This document shows, piece by piece, positions 2,279 to 21,545 of a stretch of 64,000 nt of DNA. The notes beneath the pieces are model-generated. The model was not told where the DNA came from, made no database searches, and worked only from the letters and a program-made list of their open reading frames with translations. Position 1 is the stretch's first letter, and the number at the start of each line of letters is the position of its first letter. The position numbers and the translations under genes were made by a program. The DNA comes from a virus (Duplodnaviria; Caudoviricetes), in the IMG/VR virus record IMGVR_UViG_3300014204_000014, positions 12,851 through 76,850 of that record; one strand, given 5' to 3'.

Positions 2279-2523
2279 GGTTTTTCTGGAATAATAATTC
2301 CTTCAGTATCTTCTCTAGGCATCCACCAAGTTACATCATTACTTAAAAATCCACTCCTGCCATAAAATATATTTGATGAATATGTCCCATAAGGCATAAG
2401 ATATAGACAAGAAACATCCTCTTTAAAATAAAATCCATAAAATACTTTATTGTGAAAGTAATAATAAACAGGTTCATCATCGTAAGGCTTTTCATCATGG
2501 ATATTGATCCATTTATTTGCCAT
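2266..2523 (-). CDS. Small hypothetical protein (DUF551-like)
   Basis: WINIHDEKP ... VTWWMPRE pattern typical of DUF551-like phage proteins. Confidence 0.5.
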   Translation of the reverse strand: MANKWINIHDEKPYDDEPVYYYFHNKVFYGFYFKEDVSCLYLMPYGTYSSNIFYGRSGFLSNDVTWWMPREDTEGIIIPEKPCIQ

Positions 2524-5116
2524 TTAATATTCCTATCGTATTCATTTCTGCCCAAGAGCCATTTATTTCTGATACGCTTTTCTCTATCGCTAAAGGTACG
2601 ATCAGCCAATCCCAATGCTTTCTAATTTTTTGTGTTCCATAATTCCAAATAATATAGTCCAATTCATCTTCCTCTTCGGGTGGAAAATCAGGATAAATGC
2701 TATCATGCACTTGTCCATCTATTATAGTTTTCATATTGCGCTTTTCTAATTCTTTTTGTACTTGAGTCAATGTCCATAATAAACAATGAAAAGCCGGCCC
2801 TTGTACTTGGTAATTTAATATCTGGTTATGACTCATTGGAGCTTGGTATCTAAATCCATTTAAAGTATCTACATAACCATTTTTTTCATATTCCTTTACG
2901 GTTTTTTCTTTCCAATCATACCCTACATGAAATTCGTTCCAAAATTCATTCTCTACTTTTTGCACATGATTAGTATAATCTTCTACGGTTTTTATTCCTT
3001 GCTCTTTTAAATAATTCCTAGTTTCTCTTTCACAATTATTCCATAATTCTACAGAAGTCTTTTTATACCACGATCCATAAAAAGTAGGGAATATAAAACT
3101 ATTTTTTGTTACATAACGGACATTTTTAGATATACCAACGTTTTTCATTACTTCACTAACCGGCATTAAATATAGTTTTGAAGCGAATCCTCTATGTGGG
3201 TCTTTTCCTGATTCTATGTACTTAATTAAATTCGGGTCTTTATTACAACAAGCTATTATTTTTACTTCCATCGCACCATAGTCATATTCGCCTAATTTAT
3301 TTCCTTTTCGTGGTCCTAACAATTTTCTTAATAGTTTTGCTACTTCTTCATCATGCTTAGGAATATTTTGAAAATTAGGTGAATCAGAACTAGAACGGAA
3401 AGTATCGACCATATTTAAATTGTATAGTGCGCGAATTACTCCTGATATATTTTCCTTTTCAAATCCCTTTAAATATGTATTATAAACCTTTTGCCATTTT
3501 CGCCATTCTAGACAATCTTTAACTATTGGTAATTTATATTTTCTTAATGCTTCAATATCCGACTTCGCTCGACCCGTAGCAGTTTTATCCTTTATTGAAT
3601 ACTTCATTATATCAAATAATAAATGTGTAATATCAGCAGGAGCGCTCACTCTAAATTGCTTTTCTTTATCCCATTTTTTCAATTCAGAATAAGCCAATAT
3701 TTTCTTCTCAATAGAATTTAATTTTGTAGTTAAATTTGTATCTTCCTTTTTTGCTAACTTCTCATTAAAAACAATTCCATTTTGTTCTAGCTTAGATAAA
3801 GCCATTGATCCTTTAGTAAAAAATCTAACTCCCTTTTGTAATTTAGGTTCAAGTTTAGCTAACTGATCTTCATATAATTTATATGTTAGTAAAGAATCTA
3901 AAGCATTATATTTTAGTATTTTATCTAATGGAGCTTTTTCAATACTGTTAAAAGCATTAGCTCCATACAATTCTTCTTCCTTTGATGATGGCTCTAAATA
4001 CTGTTCTATTTCAGAATCATAACCTAAAATACCAAAATGAATATAAGCATAAAACTTCAATCCTGTTCTTTTATTATTGTATAATGAATGCCCACCTAGC
4101 ATTGTATCCCAATATAAATTATTTATTTCCAAGCCCCCAGAATCATCATACCCGCCGCGAACTAATCCCCACATATTTTCAAACTTTCCATTATGACATA
4201 TTTTCTTTATATCAGAATTAAGCAACCTTAACCATTTTTGCCTAAACTTTTTATCATTAAAGTAAGGGAATGAATAACTGACTAATCCATCTGATATAGA
4301 TAAACTATATATTTTATGCCCTTCTCGATGTGGCTTTTTTCCTGTAGTCTCATAATCAAATGCTATTATTTCCTTTGTAGAAAAATCTTCAATTATTTTT
4401 ATTGCTTCTAAACTATCATAAATAGGTATACAATCAGATAAATAATTTGATACATAAAAAGACTTATTAGATATTTCTATGGCGTTTTTTATTGATTGCT
4501 TTAATTGGTTTCGTAAAACTACATCTTCACTTTCATAATTTCCTTGGCGTAAAATATATGAAGGATGCCATGTAGGAATGATAAACTTTTCTAATTCTTG
4601 ATCAGGAATAATTGTATTAGCCCAATCAGTCATTGAGCATCCAGTTATTCTACCTTGAAGCCTATGGCCAATTATTCCATCAATAGCAGTTTTTCCTAAT
4701 GCTAGAATTACTTTGCAATTACTACTTTTTATATCATCTAAAAGATATTTTCTACAAGCACTTATTTGAATTCCTGTGGGGGTTTTATTATCTGTAGGAT
4801 GACATCTAACAGCATTTGTTTTAAAAAAATCTTCATCTAAATCATAACTCAATTCTTTAATAATTTTTCTTAATAATTTTCCTGACTTTCCTACAAATTG
4901 AGTATTTTCTTCATCCTCAGTTTCACCTGGAACCTCTCCAATAATCAGTATATTTAACTTACCTTCACCTGACATAACCATTTTAGGAGAATTACATTTA
5001 TTAGATAGTCCACACTTTAAACAATTAAATACAGGGGCTTTTTTTACATGATTTTTTATTTGCTCATCACCGCGAGTAATAGAAGTTTCCTCTTGAGAGA
5101 AAAAACCTTTATTCAT
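2513..5116 (-). CDS. polA: Family A DNA polymerase with N-terminal family-4 uracil-DNA glycosylase-like domain and 3'-5' exonuclease (SPO1-type architecture)
   Basis: UDG4: CLKCGLSNKC, IIGEVPGETED..FVGKSG, RCHP, TWHPSY; exonuclease AFDYETTG; polymerase RSSSDSPNFQNIP, motif A EYDYGAMEVKI, motif B RYVTKNSFIFPTFYG, motif C QVHDSI. Confidence 0.95.
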   Translation of the reverse strand: MNKGFFSQEETSITRGDEQIKNHVKKAPVFNCLKCGLSNKCNSPKMVMSGEGKLNILIIGEVPGETEDEENTQFVGKSGKLLRKIIKELSYDLDEDFFKTNAVRCHPTDNKTPTGIQISACRKYLLDDIKSSNCKVILALGKTAIDGIIGHRLQGRITGCSMTDWANTIIPDQELEKFIIPTWHPSYILRQGNYESEDVVLRNQLKQSIKNAIEISNKSFYVSNYLSDCIPIYDSLEAIKIIEDFSTKEIIAFDYETTGKKPHREGHKIYSLSISDGLVSYSFPYFNDKKFRQKWLRLLNSDIKKICHNGKFENMWGLVRGGYDDSGGLEINNLYWDTMLGGHSLYNNKRTGLKFYAYIHFGILGYDSEIEQYLEPSSKEEELYGANAFNSIEKAPLDKILKYNALDSLLTYKLYEDQLAKLEPKLQKGVRFFTKGSMALSKLEQNGIVFNEKLAKKEDTNLTTKLNSIEKKILAYSELKKWDKEKQFRVSAPADITHLLFDIMKYSIKDKTATGRAKSDIEALRKYKLPIVKDCLEWRKWQKVYNTYLKGFEKENISGVIRALYNLNMVDTFRSSSDSPNFQNIPKHDEEVAKLLRKLLGPRKGNKLGEYDYGAMEVKIIACCNKDPNLIKYIESGKDPHRGFASKLYLMPVSEVMKNVGISKNVRYVTKNSFIFPTFYGSWYKKTSVELWNNCERETRNYLKEQGIKTVEDYTNHVQKVENEFWNEFHVGYDWKEKTVKEYEKNGYVDTLNGFRYQAPMSHNQILNYQVQGPAFHCLLWTLTQVQKELEKRNMKTIIDGQVHDSIYPDFPPEEEDELDYIIWNYGTQKIRKHWDWLIVPLAIEKSVSEINGSWAEMNTIGILNGK

Positions 5117-6107
5117 TTATTTTCTTTATTATTTTCTTCAAATCTACACCATCCTTGACTAAGTATGATAAATGCTGCTGCTGCCACTGAAGGAACTTGT
5201 CCATTTCCAATGGCTGCAATGCGGTCCACGCGATTGGCCACCCCATCAGCCACTCTACCCAATCCGGATTCAGTTTCCCACCATTGCTTTCCGTTAATAT
5301 TATTGTACTTAGCATTATTTCGTGGTTCTGATTTTTTATATATCCCCGTGCCGTTTCTAGTTTGCTGTTCATAAAGTCCTTGTCTAATTTTCTCGGAGTT
5401 AGAAATATCCGTGTTCCTAACATCTGTTCCGCTTCTTTTTGATTGATTTCTCCATTTATTATTTTTTGTTGCATCATCCAACGTGAGCCCTCGCCCCCTA
5501 GAATTCCTGATTTGCGTGCTGTTGGATACATCCTTACATAACGGTCTAATGTCATTTGACTTTTGCCTTTGCGAACTAGATTCAATGTATGTTCTGATTT
5601 TCCTGCTTCGCTTTTCATTGGAGTTGGCAAGAATCCAGATACGGTCCCTTCTATGTGGCGCTCCAACATCGCAAGCTCCCAGCACTCCCCATCTAGCATC
5701 ATACCCCATCTTGGCCAAGTCTCCAAGGACTGTTCCGAGTCCTCGAATAGTGAGAAGTGGTGAGTTTTCTGCAAGAACCCATTTAGGTTTAACTTCGCAA
5801 ATGATCCGGGCCATTTCTTTCCAAAGCCCAGAGCGTTCGCCTTCCAATCCAGCTCCCTTTCCTGCTGAGGAAATGTCTTGACAAGGGAATCCGCCGGTAA
5901 TAATATCCACTCTTCCTTTCCACGGTTTACCATCAAATGTTGTAATATCATCCCATATAGGGAATCTTGGTAATATTCCGTCTCTTTGTCTTTGTAATAA
6001 GATTTCAATACAATATTTTTCGATTTCGACGGCGCAAACTGTTTTCCATCCCAGTAAAGCCCCTCCGAGGATTCCGCCGCCTGCCCCACTAAATAATGAA
6101 AGCTCAC
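5109..6107 (-). CDS. Overprinted alternative-frame ORF; putative beta chain of the C5 methyltransferase (motif IX-like)
   Basis: 332 codons without a stop in the adjacent frame of the same strand; contains FLPTP / MYPTA / FLTP repeats and GGKLNPDWVEWLMGWP. Confidence 0.7.
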   Translation of the reverse strand: MSFHYLVGQAAESSEGLYWDGKQFAPSKSKNIVLKSYYKDKETEYYQDSLYGMILQHLMVNRGKEEWILLPADSLVKTFPQQERELDWKANALGFGKKWPGSFAKLNLNGFLQKTHHFSLFEDSEQSLETWPRWGMMLDGECWELAMLERHIEGTVSGFLPTPMKSEAGKSEHTLNLVRKGKSQMTLDRYVRMYPTARKSGILGGEGSRWMMQQKIINGEINQKEAEQMLGTRIFLTPRKLDKDFMNSKLETARGYIKNQNHEIMLSTIILTESNGGKLNPDWVEWLMGWPIAWTALQPLEMDKFLQWQQQHLSYLVKDGVDLKKIIKKINE

Positions 6108-6123
6108 GCATCATTTCCTTCAA
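5113..6123 (-). CDS. C5-cytosine DNA methyltransferase, alpha-type chain (motifs I-VIII and X)
   Basis: LSLFSGAGG (I), TGGFPCQD (IV), ENSP (VI), RRDRIW (VIII), AIGNGQVP (X); no recognisable motif IX in this frame. Confidence 0.9.
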   Translation of the reverse strand: MKEMMRELSLFSGAGGGILGGALLGWKTVCAVEIEKYCIEILLQRQRDGILPRFPIWDDITTFDGKPWKGRVDIITGGFPCQDISSAGKGAGLEGERSGLWKEMARIICEVKPKWVLAENSPLLTIRGLGTVLGDLAKMGYDARWGVLGACDVGAPHRRDRIWILANSNEKRSRKIRTYIESSSQRQKSNDIRPLCKDVSNSTQIRNSRGRGLTLDDATKNNKWRNQSKRSGTDVRNTDISNSEKIRQGLYEQQTRNGTGIYKKSEPRNNAKYNNINGKQWWETESGLGRVADGVANRVDRIAAIGNGQVPSVAAAAFIILSQGWCRFEENNKENK

Positions 6124-7174
6124 ATGTATTTACTACTTGCAATCCATTAGTATGGACAAAAATAATCTTTGAAGCCTTACCTTCCTCTTGCTTCAAATAA
6201 AAGCTATCGCTATTCGCTATACCCTGCTCGATGAAACTATAATCTACCAAAATAGTAATTTCAGGAATATTCTTTATAGGTTTATCCCATGAAACTTTTT
6301 CTGTATACTTTCCCGTAGGACGTTCACTATATACTTCAATATATTCATTAGTAAAAGTTAATTTTATTGAATTGAAGCTTTCAATATTCATAGCCAATGC
6401 TGATGCACGATTTATTGCTTCTGATAATCCTTTAGGCAAAATACCTTTTATATCTCCCTTAGCAAAAACATTATCATTTATTACTTTTTCAATCTTATTA
6501 TAAGGATACATATCATTTTGCAGTCTCTTACAAGAAAACATAGTTTTACTTTTTGATAAAAAATGTACCCATGAAGCGTCTACAAAATACTTTTCTACTT
6601 CATTTAGTTTCAATAGTTCCATAGCGGAATTATCAGAAATCCAAAACGTTCCATTTATTGAAGTATCTAAAATATACTTGCTAATTCTACTTTCATCAGT
6701 GGAAACAATAATATCATCGGAACAATAAATGCCTGATAAGCTGGATTTGTTAGAAGTGAATAAACATAGTTTTATTCCATCAAAAAATCTCTCAGGAAGT
6801 TTTGACCACTTTGGCTTTTCTGGTTTTATCTTGCTGATATAATCCATTATTGAAGATTCAATCAAAGTCAATTCTGCCCTGCTTGACTCATTTTTGATAA
6901 TCCACTTATTATCTTTTTGAATAATTTTTATTGCATCAGTTTTGAATCTGTTAATAAGATCGAAAAACTCTTTAGCTTTGATAGCTCCTTGAAGTTGACA
7001 CTCTTCATTAAGGCTGGATAATGGAACAGATACTGAAATGTTATCATTATAAGAATGTATAAATCCATCCTTAAAAATGAAAGTATCAGCACCTTCGAGA
7101 ATAGTATTACCAGTTTCAACTCCAGGTAAAGCTTCCTTCATTGCAGAAATTAAATCTCTTCGAGTAATAGTCAT
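6104..7174 (-). CDS. DNA sliding clamp (beta/DnaN-like) 1
   Basis: About 356 aa from the GGAG-preceded ATG at 7174 (MTITRRDLISAMKEALPG); three-domain clamp length; LSGIYC..VSTDESRIS and QNDMYPYNKI resemble DnaN domain II/III motifs; replication gene context. Confidence 0.7.
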   Translation of the reverse strand: MTITRRDLISAMKEALPGVETGNTILEGADTFIFKDGFIHSYNDNISVSVPLSSLNEECQLQGAIKAKEFFDLINRFKTDAIKIIQKDNKWIIKNESSRAELTLIESSIMDYISKIKPEKPKWSKLPERFFDGIKLCLFTSNKSSLSGIYCSDDIIVSTDESRISKYILDTSINGTFWISDNSAMELLKLNEVEKYFVDASWVHFLSKSKTMFSCKRLQNDMYPYNKIEKVINDNVFAKGDIKGILPKGLSEAINRASALAMNIESFNSIKLTFTNEYIEVYSERPTGKYTEKVSWDKPIKNIPEITILVDYSFIEQGIANSDSFYLKQEEGKASKIIFVHTNGLQVVNTFEGNDA

Positions 7175-7184
7175 ACTTTCTCCT

Positions 7185-8273
7185 TTAGTCTTTTTGCATA
7201 GGCATAACAATAGATATACTATTATTTGTGTAAATAAAAGTTACAGCTTTAATCCATTCTGTAAATTGAATTTCTTTCAATGGATACAATGTTAAAGCAT
7301 CATTAAAGTATTTATAATTTATTGCTAAAGTAGTTAATAAAGAAATAAATGGTTTTCTAGGATTTTCTGTAGTATCTTCAATTTTTTCCCAGCCTAATTT
7401 CTCATTAGCTAATCTAGTTTCATCATAAAATCCTATCCATTTCATTTTTCCTATAATTTTACTATCCCATTCAACAGAAACTTCATCATCTTTTTCATGT
7501 TTAATATATATTCTTTCTGAATTGCTTTTACTTTTTAGTAAAACTATTTTTGAATAAATATCCTTCCATGCAGTTAAATCAGGAACACCAATAGTAAATC
7601 TTTGCTTTTCAGGAACTACTTTTTGCCAATTAGGAAACTGGCCTTCGATATTACTAGCACAATAAAACATCATACTGCCTTTATATTCAAATTGGAATAT
7701 TGAAAAAGTTTTATCAATTTTATACTTTATATTTGTACCTTTTTTCAATAGCCATTCTAAGCATTTTGAATTAGGTAGAATTACTGATGGGAAATTATCA
7801 AATCCTTGTGAATAAAATAATCTTCTTCCATCAGTAGAAACTACAAATCCCTTTTCAAAATAAATACCTGCCATAAAATATCTAGTTACATCATCAGTAA
7901 CAAATTTATAAGCATCAGTTATTAGTTGTGCTTGTGAAGCATTTATATTAACCCATTCCCCATTCACTAAATCAATTTCTGCTTGCGGATACTTTTCTAA
8001 ATTAGTTTCATTTGTATTGAACCCATCTAGTTTATCAAATGCTTTGCTTAGTAAATACTCATAAACGCCATTTTCTTCATTACCAGTATAGTCCATAATG
8101 AGGAAGTTTTTTATATTAGAAGCTATTAGTTTGTTATCATTTTTAGCTATGTAAGAGCATATTGATAAACTATTTTTAGATAATTCCATGTGAGAACATA
8201 CACCTAAAAACACTTTTAATGTATCAGTATCTTTTGTTTCTTGTACAATTTCATCATCAAATATATTTTTCAT
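7185..8273 (-). CDS. DNA sliding clamp (beta/DnaN-like) 2
   Basis: DDVTRYFMAGIYFEKGFVVSTDGRRL and IEGQFPNWQKVVP closely follow DnaN R..LNG...VATDGHRL and DG.FPDY..V.P. Confidence 0.75.
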   Translation of the reverse strand: MKNIFDDEIVQETKDTDTLKVFLGVCSHMELSKNSLSICSYIAKNDNKLIASNIKNFLIMDYTGNEENGVYEYLLSKAFDKLDGFNTNETNLEKYPQAEIDLVNGEWVNINASQAQLITDAYKFVTDDVTRYFMAGIYFEKGFVVSTDGRRLFYSQGFDNFPSVILPNSKCLEWLLKKGTNIKYKIDKTFSIFQFEYKGSMMFYCASNIEGQFPNWQKVVPEKQRFTIGVPDLTAWKDIYSKIVLLKSKSNSERIYIKHEKDDEVSVEWDSKIIGKMKWIGFYDETRLANEKLGWEKIEDTTENPRKPFISLLTTLAINYKYFNDALTLYPLKEIQFTEWIKAVTFIYTNNSISIVMPMQKD

Positions 8274-20591: not shown

Positions 20592-21545
20592 TTACCTAAC
20601 TAGCACTGCCACTTTTTCAATGGCTTCCTGTGCTTGCTTCAGAATCCTATTGCCATCAATAAAGCTGGCAAATCGCTTTTCCTGAAAAGTTTGGGTAAGG
20701 CGCAAAGGCTCAGCATGGGAAGCAAAATCCGCGAAAGCATTATATACTCCCCAAGCATCTCCAGCGAACTTTCTCAAATCCTGAGCCTCTGAATAAATGT
20801 CTTGAACCTGTTGGCGAAGGGTCAAGGCATTATTCTTTTGCCTATCGCTATCCTTTTCTTCAACAGGAAAAACAAATTCCAGAATATCATTAAATTTACT
20901 TTTATTGATTTTTGTCTGCTGATATTTTTCCGCTACTACATTCATCTCCTTCATATAATCGAAGGTTAAGCCAAGCGTCATTGCCGCATCTTTCTTTTTT
21001 CCTTCCACATCTCCCATATGGCGAATTGACCATGAGCGCTTTGCTTCTCGTAAAGCGAGGTTAAGCGTATTCTGGCACACCACGCGAGTGGGAGTAAGAG
21101 CGGCTGTTATAGCTTGGCTTCCATCGAAGCTGTTTGCGAAAACTAAATAAGGAACAACTTCCTCGCCTAAGATTTTCTCAGCAGGAAGATGCGCAAGAAT
21201 CCAAATCTTCCTACCATGATTTAATGATCCTGCTGATTCATAAGTAACTTTTGCTTTTTTACTTTTTACCAATTCATCAGTAAAAGCAAAGGCATCACGA
21301 TTCAAAACTATCTTATATTTTTCCGAAGTATCGCCAAGCACCATCCTATCGCTCGTCCTGACGTTTACTCGCATATCAGGAATTTCCGTTCCATCAGCGA
21401 GATAAACTTTTTCAGGAATTACGTCCCAGTCAAGCCCTGCTAGCTTTAGCGCCGTCAAGCTATCAGGTGCTTCCTGAACTACAGTACCAAGCCCATGCCA
21501 TGCGGGCTTCTTATACAAAAAACAAGTTTCGACATTAGCAGACAT
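20592..21545 (-). CDS. DUF932 / TIGR03299-like phage protein
   Basis: KPAWHGLGTVV, ALKLAGLDWDV, YESAGSLNHGRKIWILA, NSFDGS, TPTRVVCQNTL. Confidence 0.85.
   Translation of the reverse strand: MSANVETCFLYKKPAWHGLGTVVQEAPDSLTALKLAGLDWDVIPEKVYLADGTEIPDMRVNVRTSDRMVLGDTSEKYKIVLNRDAFAFTDELVKSKKAKVTYESAGSLNHGRKIWILAHLPAEKILGEEVVPYLVFANSFDGSQAITAALTPTRVVCQNTLNLALREAKRSWSIRHMGDVEGKKKDAAMTLGLTFDYMKEMNVVAEKYQQTKINKSKFNDILEFVFPVEEKDSDRQKNNALTLRQQVQDIYSEAQDLRKFAGDAWGVYNAFADFASHAEPLRLTQTFQEKRFASFIDGNRILKQAQEAIEKVAVLVR

Follow-up and report, generated by a model that had tools for sequence, protein, structure and literature searches.

A phage C5 DNA methyltransferase locus kept open in two overlapping reading frames, the probable source of two chains of one enzyme

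We analysed a stretch of 64 000 nucleotides (nt) from a virus of the Caudoviricetes (IMG/VR record IMGVR_UViG_3300014204_000014; hereafter the window, in whose numbering all coordinates are given) and found a C5 DNA methyltransferase gene, frame A, that is overlapped from end to end by a second reading frame, B, on the same minus strand. Both frames are kept open, conservation extends to their pair of starts, constraint alternates along the gene between one frame and the other, and A amounts to the large domain of a methyltransferase only. With a probability of roughly 0.7, we consider the locus to encode an orphan C5 DNA methyltransferase of the phage, with two chains that are produced from overlapping frames of one mRNA.

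The two minus-strand open reading frames (ORFs) lie at 5113..6123 (336 amino acids, TTG start) and 5109..6107 (332 amino acids, GTG start), with B in the +1 frame of A, in agreement with a preliminary description, made from the sequence alone, of two same-strand ORFs of 336 and 332 codons offset by one frame. The ORF of A stays open upstream as far as TTG 6123, and homology places its start at ATG 6111, not at TTG 6123 (the conserved start lies 18 nt 5′ of motif I). Gene A (alpha chain, 5113..6111; PF00145 and phrog_363) therefore has 332 codons, from ATG 6111 to the stop TGA at 5115–5113, and gene B (beta chain, 5109..6107; phrog_1008) likewise has 332 codons, from GTG 6107 to the stop TAA at 5111–5109, giving an end-to-end overlap of about 995 nt. 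A shared Shine–Dalgarno sequence, AAGGA (6116..6120), lies 4 nt 5′ of the ATG of A and 8 nt 5′ of the GTG of B; the paired starts themselves, 4 nt apart, read ATG-C-GTG (6104..6111), the counterpart of an NTG-A-ATG arrangement conserved in other loci. The database gene call for this locus is a 197-amino-acid fragment of B that starts at MMLDGECW (P0003).

Chance openness of the two frames is excluded. Synonymous codons were shuffled in one frame, keeping its protein and codon usage, and stops were counted in the other frame. In the window, 7.6 stops were expected in B (none of 5000 shuffles reached zero) and 12.2 in A, and none was observed in either. Taken by halves, B over the catalytic half of A was expected to contain 4.6 stops (probability of none, 0.002) and A over the recognition half of B 6.3 stops (probability of none, 0.0002). 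For these passenger halves in 42 non-redundant loci, 131 and 211 stops were expected and none was seen.

The layout is kept in hundreds of phages. Frame B matched 596 stretches in viral contigs, and both frames were open in 78 of 84 viral loci, with B always in the A+1 frame and a median overlap of 894 nt. Because these 84 loci had been picked with B, which could bias the result, 80 further loci were fetched with the catalytic domain of A only; of the 68 that were not truncated, 64 had a start codon for B adjoining that of A and at least 200 open codons after it. Bacterial genomes also contained the layout (66 of 80 loci, in Proteobacteria, Spirochaetes, Verrucomicrobia, Planctomycetes, Patescibacteria and other phyla), which persists down to about 30% sequence identity. 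Stops interrupting B in close homologues, named in the preliminary description as an observation that would speak against two chains, were not found in a relative whose nucleotide identity is 87% and which lies on a 78-kb contig; there, despite several indels, frames of 292 and 292 codons are intact. Among cultured phages, the layout is seen for instance in Acinetobacter phage ABMM1, Microcystis phage Mel-JY01 and Vibrio phage ZQ26, in each of which only one frame is annotated.

The position of the paired starts is conserved against codon preference. Nearly all loci have NTG-A-ATG behind a Shine–Dalgarno sequence, with the start of A 18 nt and that of B 14 nt 5′ of motif I. Among 199 distinct loci, B has an ATG or GTG at −14 in 184, and a Shine–Dalgarno-like purine run precedes the paired starts in 146. 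The asparagine codon of A that forms the ATG of B is AAT in 156 of these loci and AAC in one, while asparagine elsewhere in the same domain shows the opposite preference (445 AAC versus 170 AAT).

The dual-frame dN/dS comparison proposed in the preliminary description was run on 24 independent pairs of homologues (76–95% identity), with an OLGenie-like count that classes each change by its consequences for both frames. Over the catalytic large domain of A (motifs I–VIII, 5614..6111), whose bases are also those of a B leader of about 130–165 residues, the ratio was 0.20 for A and 0.57 for B, against 1.59 for the +2 frame used as control. A first analysis had suggested purifying selection on the B leader (0.60), and this was withdrawn in the light of the +2-frame control (1.5–1.6), as codon-position bias can explain it; we claim no amino-acid constraint for the leader because that bias alone can give the value of B. 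In the middle region the picture is reversed, with purifying selection on B (0.19 [0.14–0.24]) and neutrality of A (1.06 [0.75–1.38]). This part of B is its variable region with xPTP anchors (5283..5720), which overlaps the end of the catalytic domain of A at 5617–5720 and which, from 5616 to 5283, shares its bases with the larger part of a predicted disordered linker in A (5269–5616 in full). Over the last ~35 codons both frames are constrained (A 0.42, B 0.27), and here a motif-IX-like block of B (KLNPDWVEWLMGWP..WT, 5208..5279) and the motif X block of A (GRV..G.A.RVDR..AIGNGQVP plus a helix, 5164..5268; conservation 0.75–0.84) lie on the same bases. Conservation profiles were consistent with the selection ratios region by region. 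Codon choice at conserved residues of A is position-specific (1.21 bits versus 1.61 for the null), one glycine being GGG in 65 of 65 loci.

Taken together, the ratios indicate that constraint in both frames is limited to about 35 codons, where motif IX would lie over motif X, and that elsewhere one frame probably serves as an unconstrained spacer. The near-total dual coding proposed earlier therefore holds as openness, both frames being open in close and distant homologues, and not as constraint, which in both frames extends to those ~35 codons only. The suggestion that target recognition may reside in B is strengthened: it is most likely there, because the middle of B, and not that of A, is under purifying selection.

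Frame A is readily recognizable as a methyltransferase, as the preliminary description had read from its motifs I–VIII and X, together with its low-complexity region. It matched PF00145 (C5 methyltransferase; E = 2e-42), with the alignment starting at profile position 1, and phrog_363 (E = 4e-77). Its motifs are FSGAGGG (I), GGFPCQ (IV), ENSP (VI), HRRDR (VIII) and AIGNGQVP (X), with the low-complexity stretch between VIII and X. The S-adenosylmethionine (AdoMet)-binding FxGxGG of motif I has columns invariant in 59 relatives, motif IV, with the catalytic Pro-Cys, is invariant and aligns with the catalytic loop of M.HhaI, and for motifs VI (ENV) and VIII (QxRxR) the variants ENSP and PHRRDR stand opposite ENV and PQKRER in the alignment with M.HhaI, the E, N, R and R being invariant. 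Motif X (GNxV plus a helix) is also present, AIGNGQVP being conserved and its G, R and Q columns invariant. An AlphaFold2 model of A, built with the alignment of the 59 relatives, showed a Rossmann-type core at residues 1–170 (predicted local distance difference test, pLDDT, about 90), a disordered stretch at residues 185–293 (pLDDT 33–46) and a C-terminal helix (pLDDT 71–93). Foldseek matched this model to M.HaeIII and M.HhaI over about 170 columns, i.e. the large domain only (E = 8e-14). A small domain that would combine a recognition region with motif IX was not found in chain A, where residues 185–293 are both disordered in the model and neutral. The model thus describes A as a large domain only, with a predicted disordered linker of roughly 110 residues in the position of the small domain.

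Frame B contains the elements LPTP, YPTA and LTP and the block KLNPDWVEWLMGWP, confirming the xPTP repeats and the block already read in it. It matched phrog_1008, annotated as 'DNA methyltransferase' (E = 1.6e-19), and has 1666 relatives in the database, almost all unnamed and belonging to no Pfam family. No Pfam family was found for frame B, for longer B-type proteins or for the B ORFs of phages phiBT1 and Diva, a hidden Markov model (HMM) of 98 B relatives produced only a chance hit against PDB sequences, and a search for longer single-chain relatives of B gave three weak hits only. The motif-IX-like block consists of invariant or near-invariant columns across the 98 relatives, and KLNPDWVEWLMGWP fits the pattern of RKLTPRECWRLQGFP from a canonical enzyme; the Pfam and PDB sequence searches did not detect the block. 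In relatives of the window gene (P0006, phiBT1 and the mycobacteriophages Twister and Schuy), the motif-IX-like block is followed by motif X in one chain, in the canonical order. Pattern and order before motif X support the identification of the block as a putative motif IX; the earlier proposal that B supplies this motif stands to that extent. In the predicted fold of B, residues 1–130 are disordered (pLDDT about 40) and a helix at 281–288 coincides with the motif-IX-like block (pLDDT about 80).

In the two-chain enzyme that we propose, ribosomes recruited at the single Shine–Dalgarno site would initiate either at ATG 6111, producing A, or 4 nt further on at GTG 6107, producing B. Chain A would comprise the AdoMet-binding catalytic large domain (motifs I–VIII), followed by a disordered linker of about 110 residues whose sequence is free, and its last element, the motif X helix, would complete the large domain. 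Chain B would begin with a disordered leader of about 130 residues, read over the catalytic domain of A, and continue with the variable target-recognition region and the motif-IX-like helix, which together would substitute for the missing small domain of A. The two chains would then assemble into one enzyme methylating the phage's own DNA, and thereby protecting it from host restriction. We infer that both proteins are made, that they bind each other, that both are needed and that specificity lies in B. End-to-end openness would be maintained because a stop in the spacer of either frame would cut off the functional end beyond it.

Several results weigh against this reading. The B leader shows no amino-acid constraint beyond codon-position bias, the motif-IX-like block is not recognized as motif IX by Pfam and PDB sequence searches, and the fold predicted for B alone (pLDDT 56) was too low in confidence for a fold search. 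The conserved WPRWGMM of B is at least partly a frame shadow of the A motif around GYD; it had been considered as proof of translation over motifs VI–VIII of A and was dropped, as a single-chain streptococcal enzyme has the same +1 shadow. A hypothetical read-through protein joining A, B and A again scored 133 bits in Pfam versus 146 for A alone. Finally, one close relative (L091, IMGVR_UViG_3300005898_000025) has a frame A that is closed by a stop after 185 codons. In that locus (86% nucleotide identity; gene region from about 1500), A is without motif X and the motif-IX-like block of B is degenerate; the copy may be decaying, the assembly may be in error, or the enzyme may be divided differently there.

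Among other explanations, B could be made from an internal start, e.g. the methionine pair at B residues 136–137, in which case the leader would be untranslated and its openness a side effect. The 197-amino-acid database call begins at just such a point, B begins inside A in Paenibacillus and mycobacteriophage relatives, and the leader is without demonstrable amino-acid constraint. We nevertheless regard an internal start as unlikely, since the leader is free of stops both in the window (P = 0.002) and over the 42 loci (131 expected), the loci keep the start codon at −14 in spite of codon preference, and GTG 6107 overlaps the TGA stop codon of the upstream 368-amino-acid gene as GTGA.

One fused protein could also arise by programmed frameshifting, the ribosome reading motifs I–VIII in A, shifting +1 into the recognition region and motif IX of B and returning by −1 for motif X. 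A fusion of this kind would contain precisely the constrained segments (the N-terminal half of A and the middle of B), and PRFect flags phage methyltransferases among predicted frameshift genes (PMC10885494). Against this, two opposite shifts are required, it is left unexplained why the stretches of A and B outside the fusion have no stops (131 and 211 expected), and there is no reason for a start codon of B to be kept beside that of A. Moreover, the IX and X blocks, both of them constrained, share bases, which a single ribosome cannot translate twice. The A-B-A read-through mentioned above (P0126), built to test frameshifting, dropped below A alone in Pfam (from 146 to 133 bits), and its PDB matches still ended at motif VIII. 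Frameshifting into a fusion is accordingly improbable.

Alternatively, B may be a real protein with a role other than methylation, e.g. a regulator or counter-defence factor, A alone being the enzyme. That B has no Pfam family and that HMM searches link it to no solved methyltransferase would fit such a role. We think it improbable as well, given that A itself lacks both a small domain and a recognition region, with a middle that is neutral and predicted to be disordered, that the B-type chain of relatives has motif X right after the motif-IX-like block, and that B always co-occurs with A. An untranslated second frame, left open merely through composition or recent common descent, is highly improbable: the +1 frame of C5-methyltransferase catalytic domains does tend to be open and mirrors the motifs even in a single-chain enzyme, but the flanks here have 29% GC and shuffles preserving codon usage still expect many stops, the ratio in the middle of B is 0.19, and the layout is found across phyla, at identities as low as about 30%.

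Under the two-chain reading, the overlap may in addition be functional in itself. Competition between starts at one ribosome-binding site could fix the ratio of alpha to beta, synthesis from the same mRNA could aid assembly in cis, and the B leader and the A linker could act as disordered tethers in the complex instead of being simple read-through. We put this forward tentatively, with the balance against it; if correct, it would mean an interleaved coding in which each frame alternates between folded part and spacer over about 900 nt, in many bacterial phyla.

The two-frame gene belongs to a tightly coupled minus-strand operon (2513–8273) that also contains, ahead of it, a 362- and the 368-amino-acid clamp-like gene and, after it, an 867-amino-acid polymerase gene with a UDG-like (uracil-DNA glycosylase-like) part at its N-terminus. 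The operon junctions overlap as GTGA and ATGA; at the latter (5113..5116), the TGA of A overlaps the ATG of the downstream polymerase gene, and the stop of B lies 2 nt beyond. The preliminary description had spoken of AT-rich DNA, which is true of the flanks and genome (29% GC) and not of the two-frame gene itself (41–43% GC). This excess could mean two-frame stop avoidance or a horizontal origin; relatives in low-GC contigs likewise exceed their flanks in GC. Further GC-rich islands (39–43% GC) stand out from the AT-rich composition of the phage at 21000–24000, 33000–34000 and 50000–53000 of the window.

Standard annotation calls one frame of such loci or a fragment, and relatives in GenBank are labelled 'hypothetical' or 'may be inactive'; the specificity of phage methyltransferases would therefore be predicted from the wrong chain. 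If the two-chain model is true, these genes would be among the longest conserved same-strand gene overlaps in double-stranded DNA phages, and would represent a natural, widespread split methyltransferase whose recognition modules could be exchanged apart from the catalytic core. They could then help to predict how phages escape restriction, and could provide a scaffold for split-enzyme tools.

A literature search for functional studies of the two-frame methyltransferase family found none. The nearest known enzyme in layout is M.EcoHK31I of Escherichia coli HK31 (YGGCCR; Lee, Kam and Shaw, 1995), a C5 methyltransferase active as two chains, in which alpha has motifs I–VIII and motif X as well as the recognition domain, and beta, carrying motif IX, is encoded in the other frame inside the alpha gene (PMC2836561, PMC3404938), as the preliminary description had stated for beta. 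The window shares with it a second chain encoded in another frame inside the gene of the first. In M.EcoHK31I, however, the recognition domain is in alpha and beta is small and nested, whereas in the window the recognition region would be in beta and alpha would have only a spacer there, the selection in the middle acting on B (0.19) and not on A (1.06). The window also differs in that its overlap runs end to end, with two starts on one ribosome-binding site; the likeness is one of layout, the beta chains being compared by description.

M.AquI (CYCGRG; Karreman and de Waard, 1990) is likewise made of two chains, split in the variable region and both needed (PMC3404938), with motifs IX and X in beta, whereas motif X is in alpha in the window. 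A division like that of M.AquI, with partial overlap, was found in relatives of the window gene: A ends after motif VIII and B carries IX and then X in P0006 and P0016, in two spirochaete genomes, and in phiBT1, Twister and Schuy, the actinophages in this differing from the window. In P0006, P0016 and two loci of Spirochaetia genomes (L170 and L172), A has 170–179 amino acids and B, with its IX and then X block, 378–453. This variant could have originated from the window type by duplication of the shared IX/X segment and a 1-nt shift. These relatives also show that the split point moves within one family.

Such overlaps have been seen in other phages. By tblastn, frame B aligned to loci of Paenibacillus (phage Diva) and Streptomyces (phiBT1). 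Diva has gp49 and gp50, the latter labelled 'g49 internal gene', and two overlapping 'DNA methyltransferase' genes are annotated in Twister (gp79/gp78) and Schuy (gp6/gp5); B starts inside A in all three records, making the overlap partial, unlike that of the window. McDonnell et al. (2017) described how, in the 5093-group phages of Streptococcus thermophilus, C5 methyltransferases lying in different frames show an 'apparent total overlap' (PMC5601072), and cited the same overlap for S. pneumoniae phage MM1 and Tn5252 (Obregon, 2003; Sampath and Vijayakumar, 1998). These genes are of a Firmicutes lineage, and no Streptococcus phage was among the matches listed for frame B in tblastn. In Streptococcus phage phiARI0746, we observed a 161-codon +1 ORF (L089:1239–1724) over motifs II–VIII of a canonical single-chain C5 methyltransferase of 386 amino acids, which has motifs IX and X in frame. 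This +1 ORF ends in SLSDILEEEVDERYFLS, resembling a target-recognition domain, and its frame matched 242 phage records by tblastn, mostly of Streptococcus; it may be the overlap of PMC5601072 or a mere frame shadow. The layout is hence not new, since it has already appeared in print (PMC5601072) and in the annotation of several phage groups, and the window is not a new kind of system but a low-GC example in which chance openness is firmly excluded.

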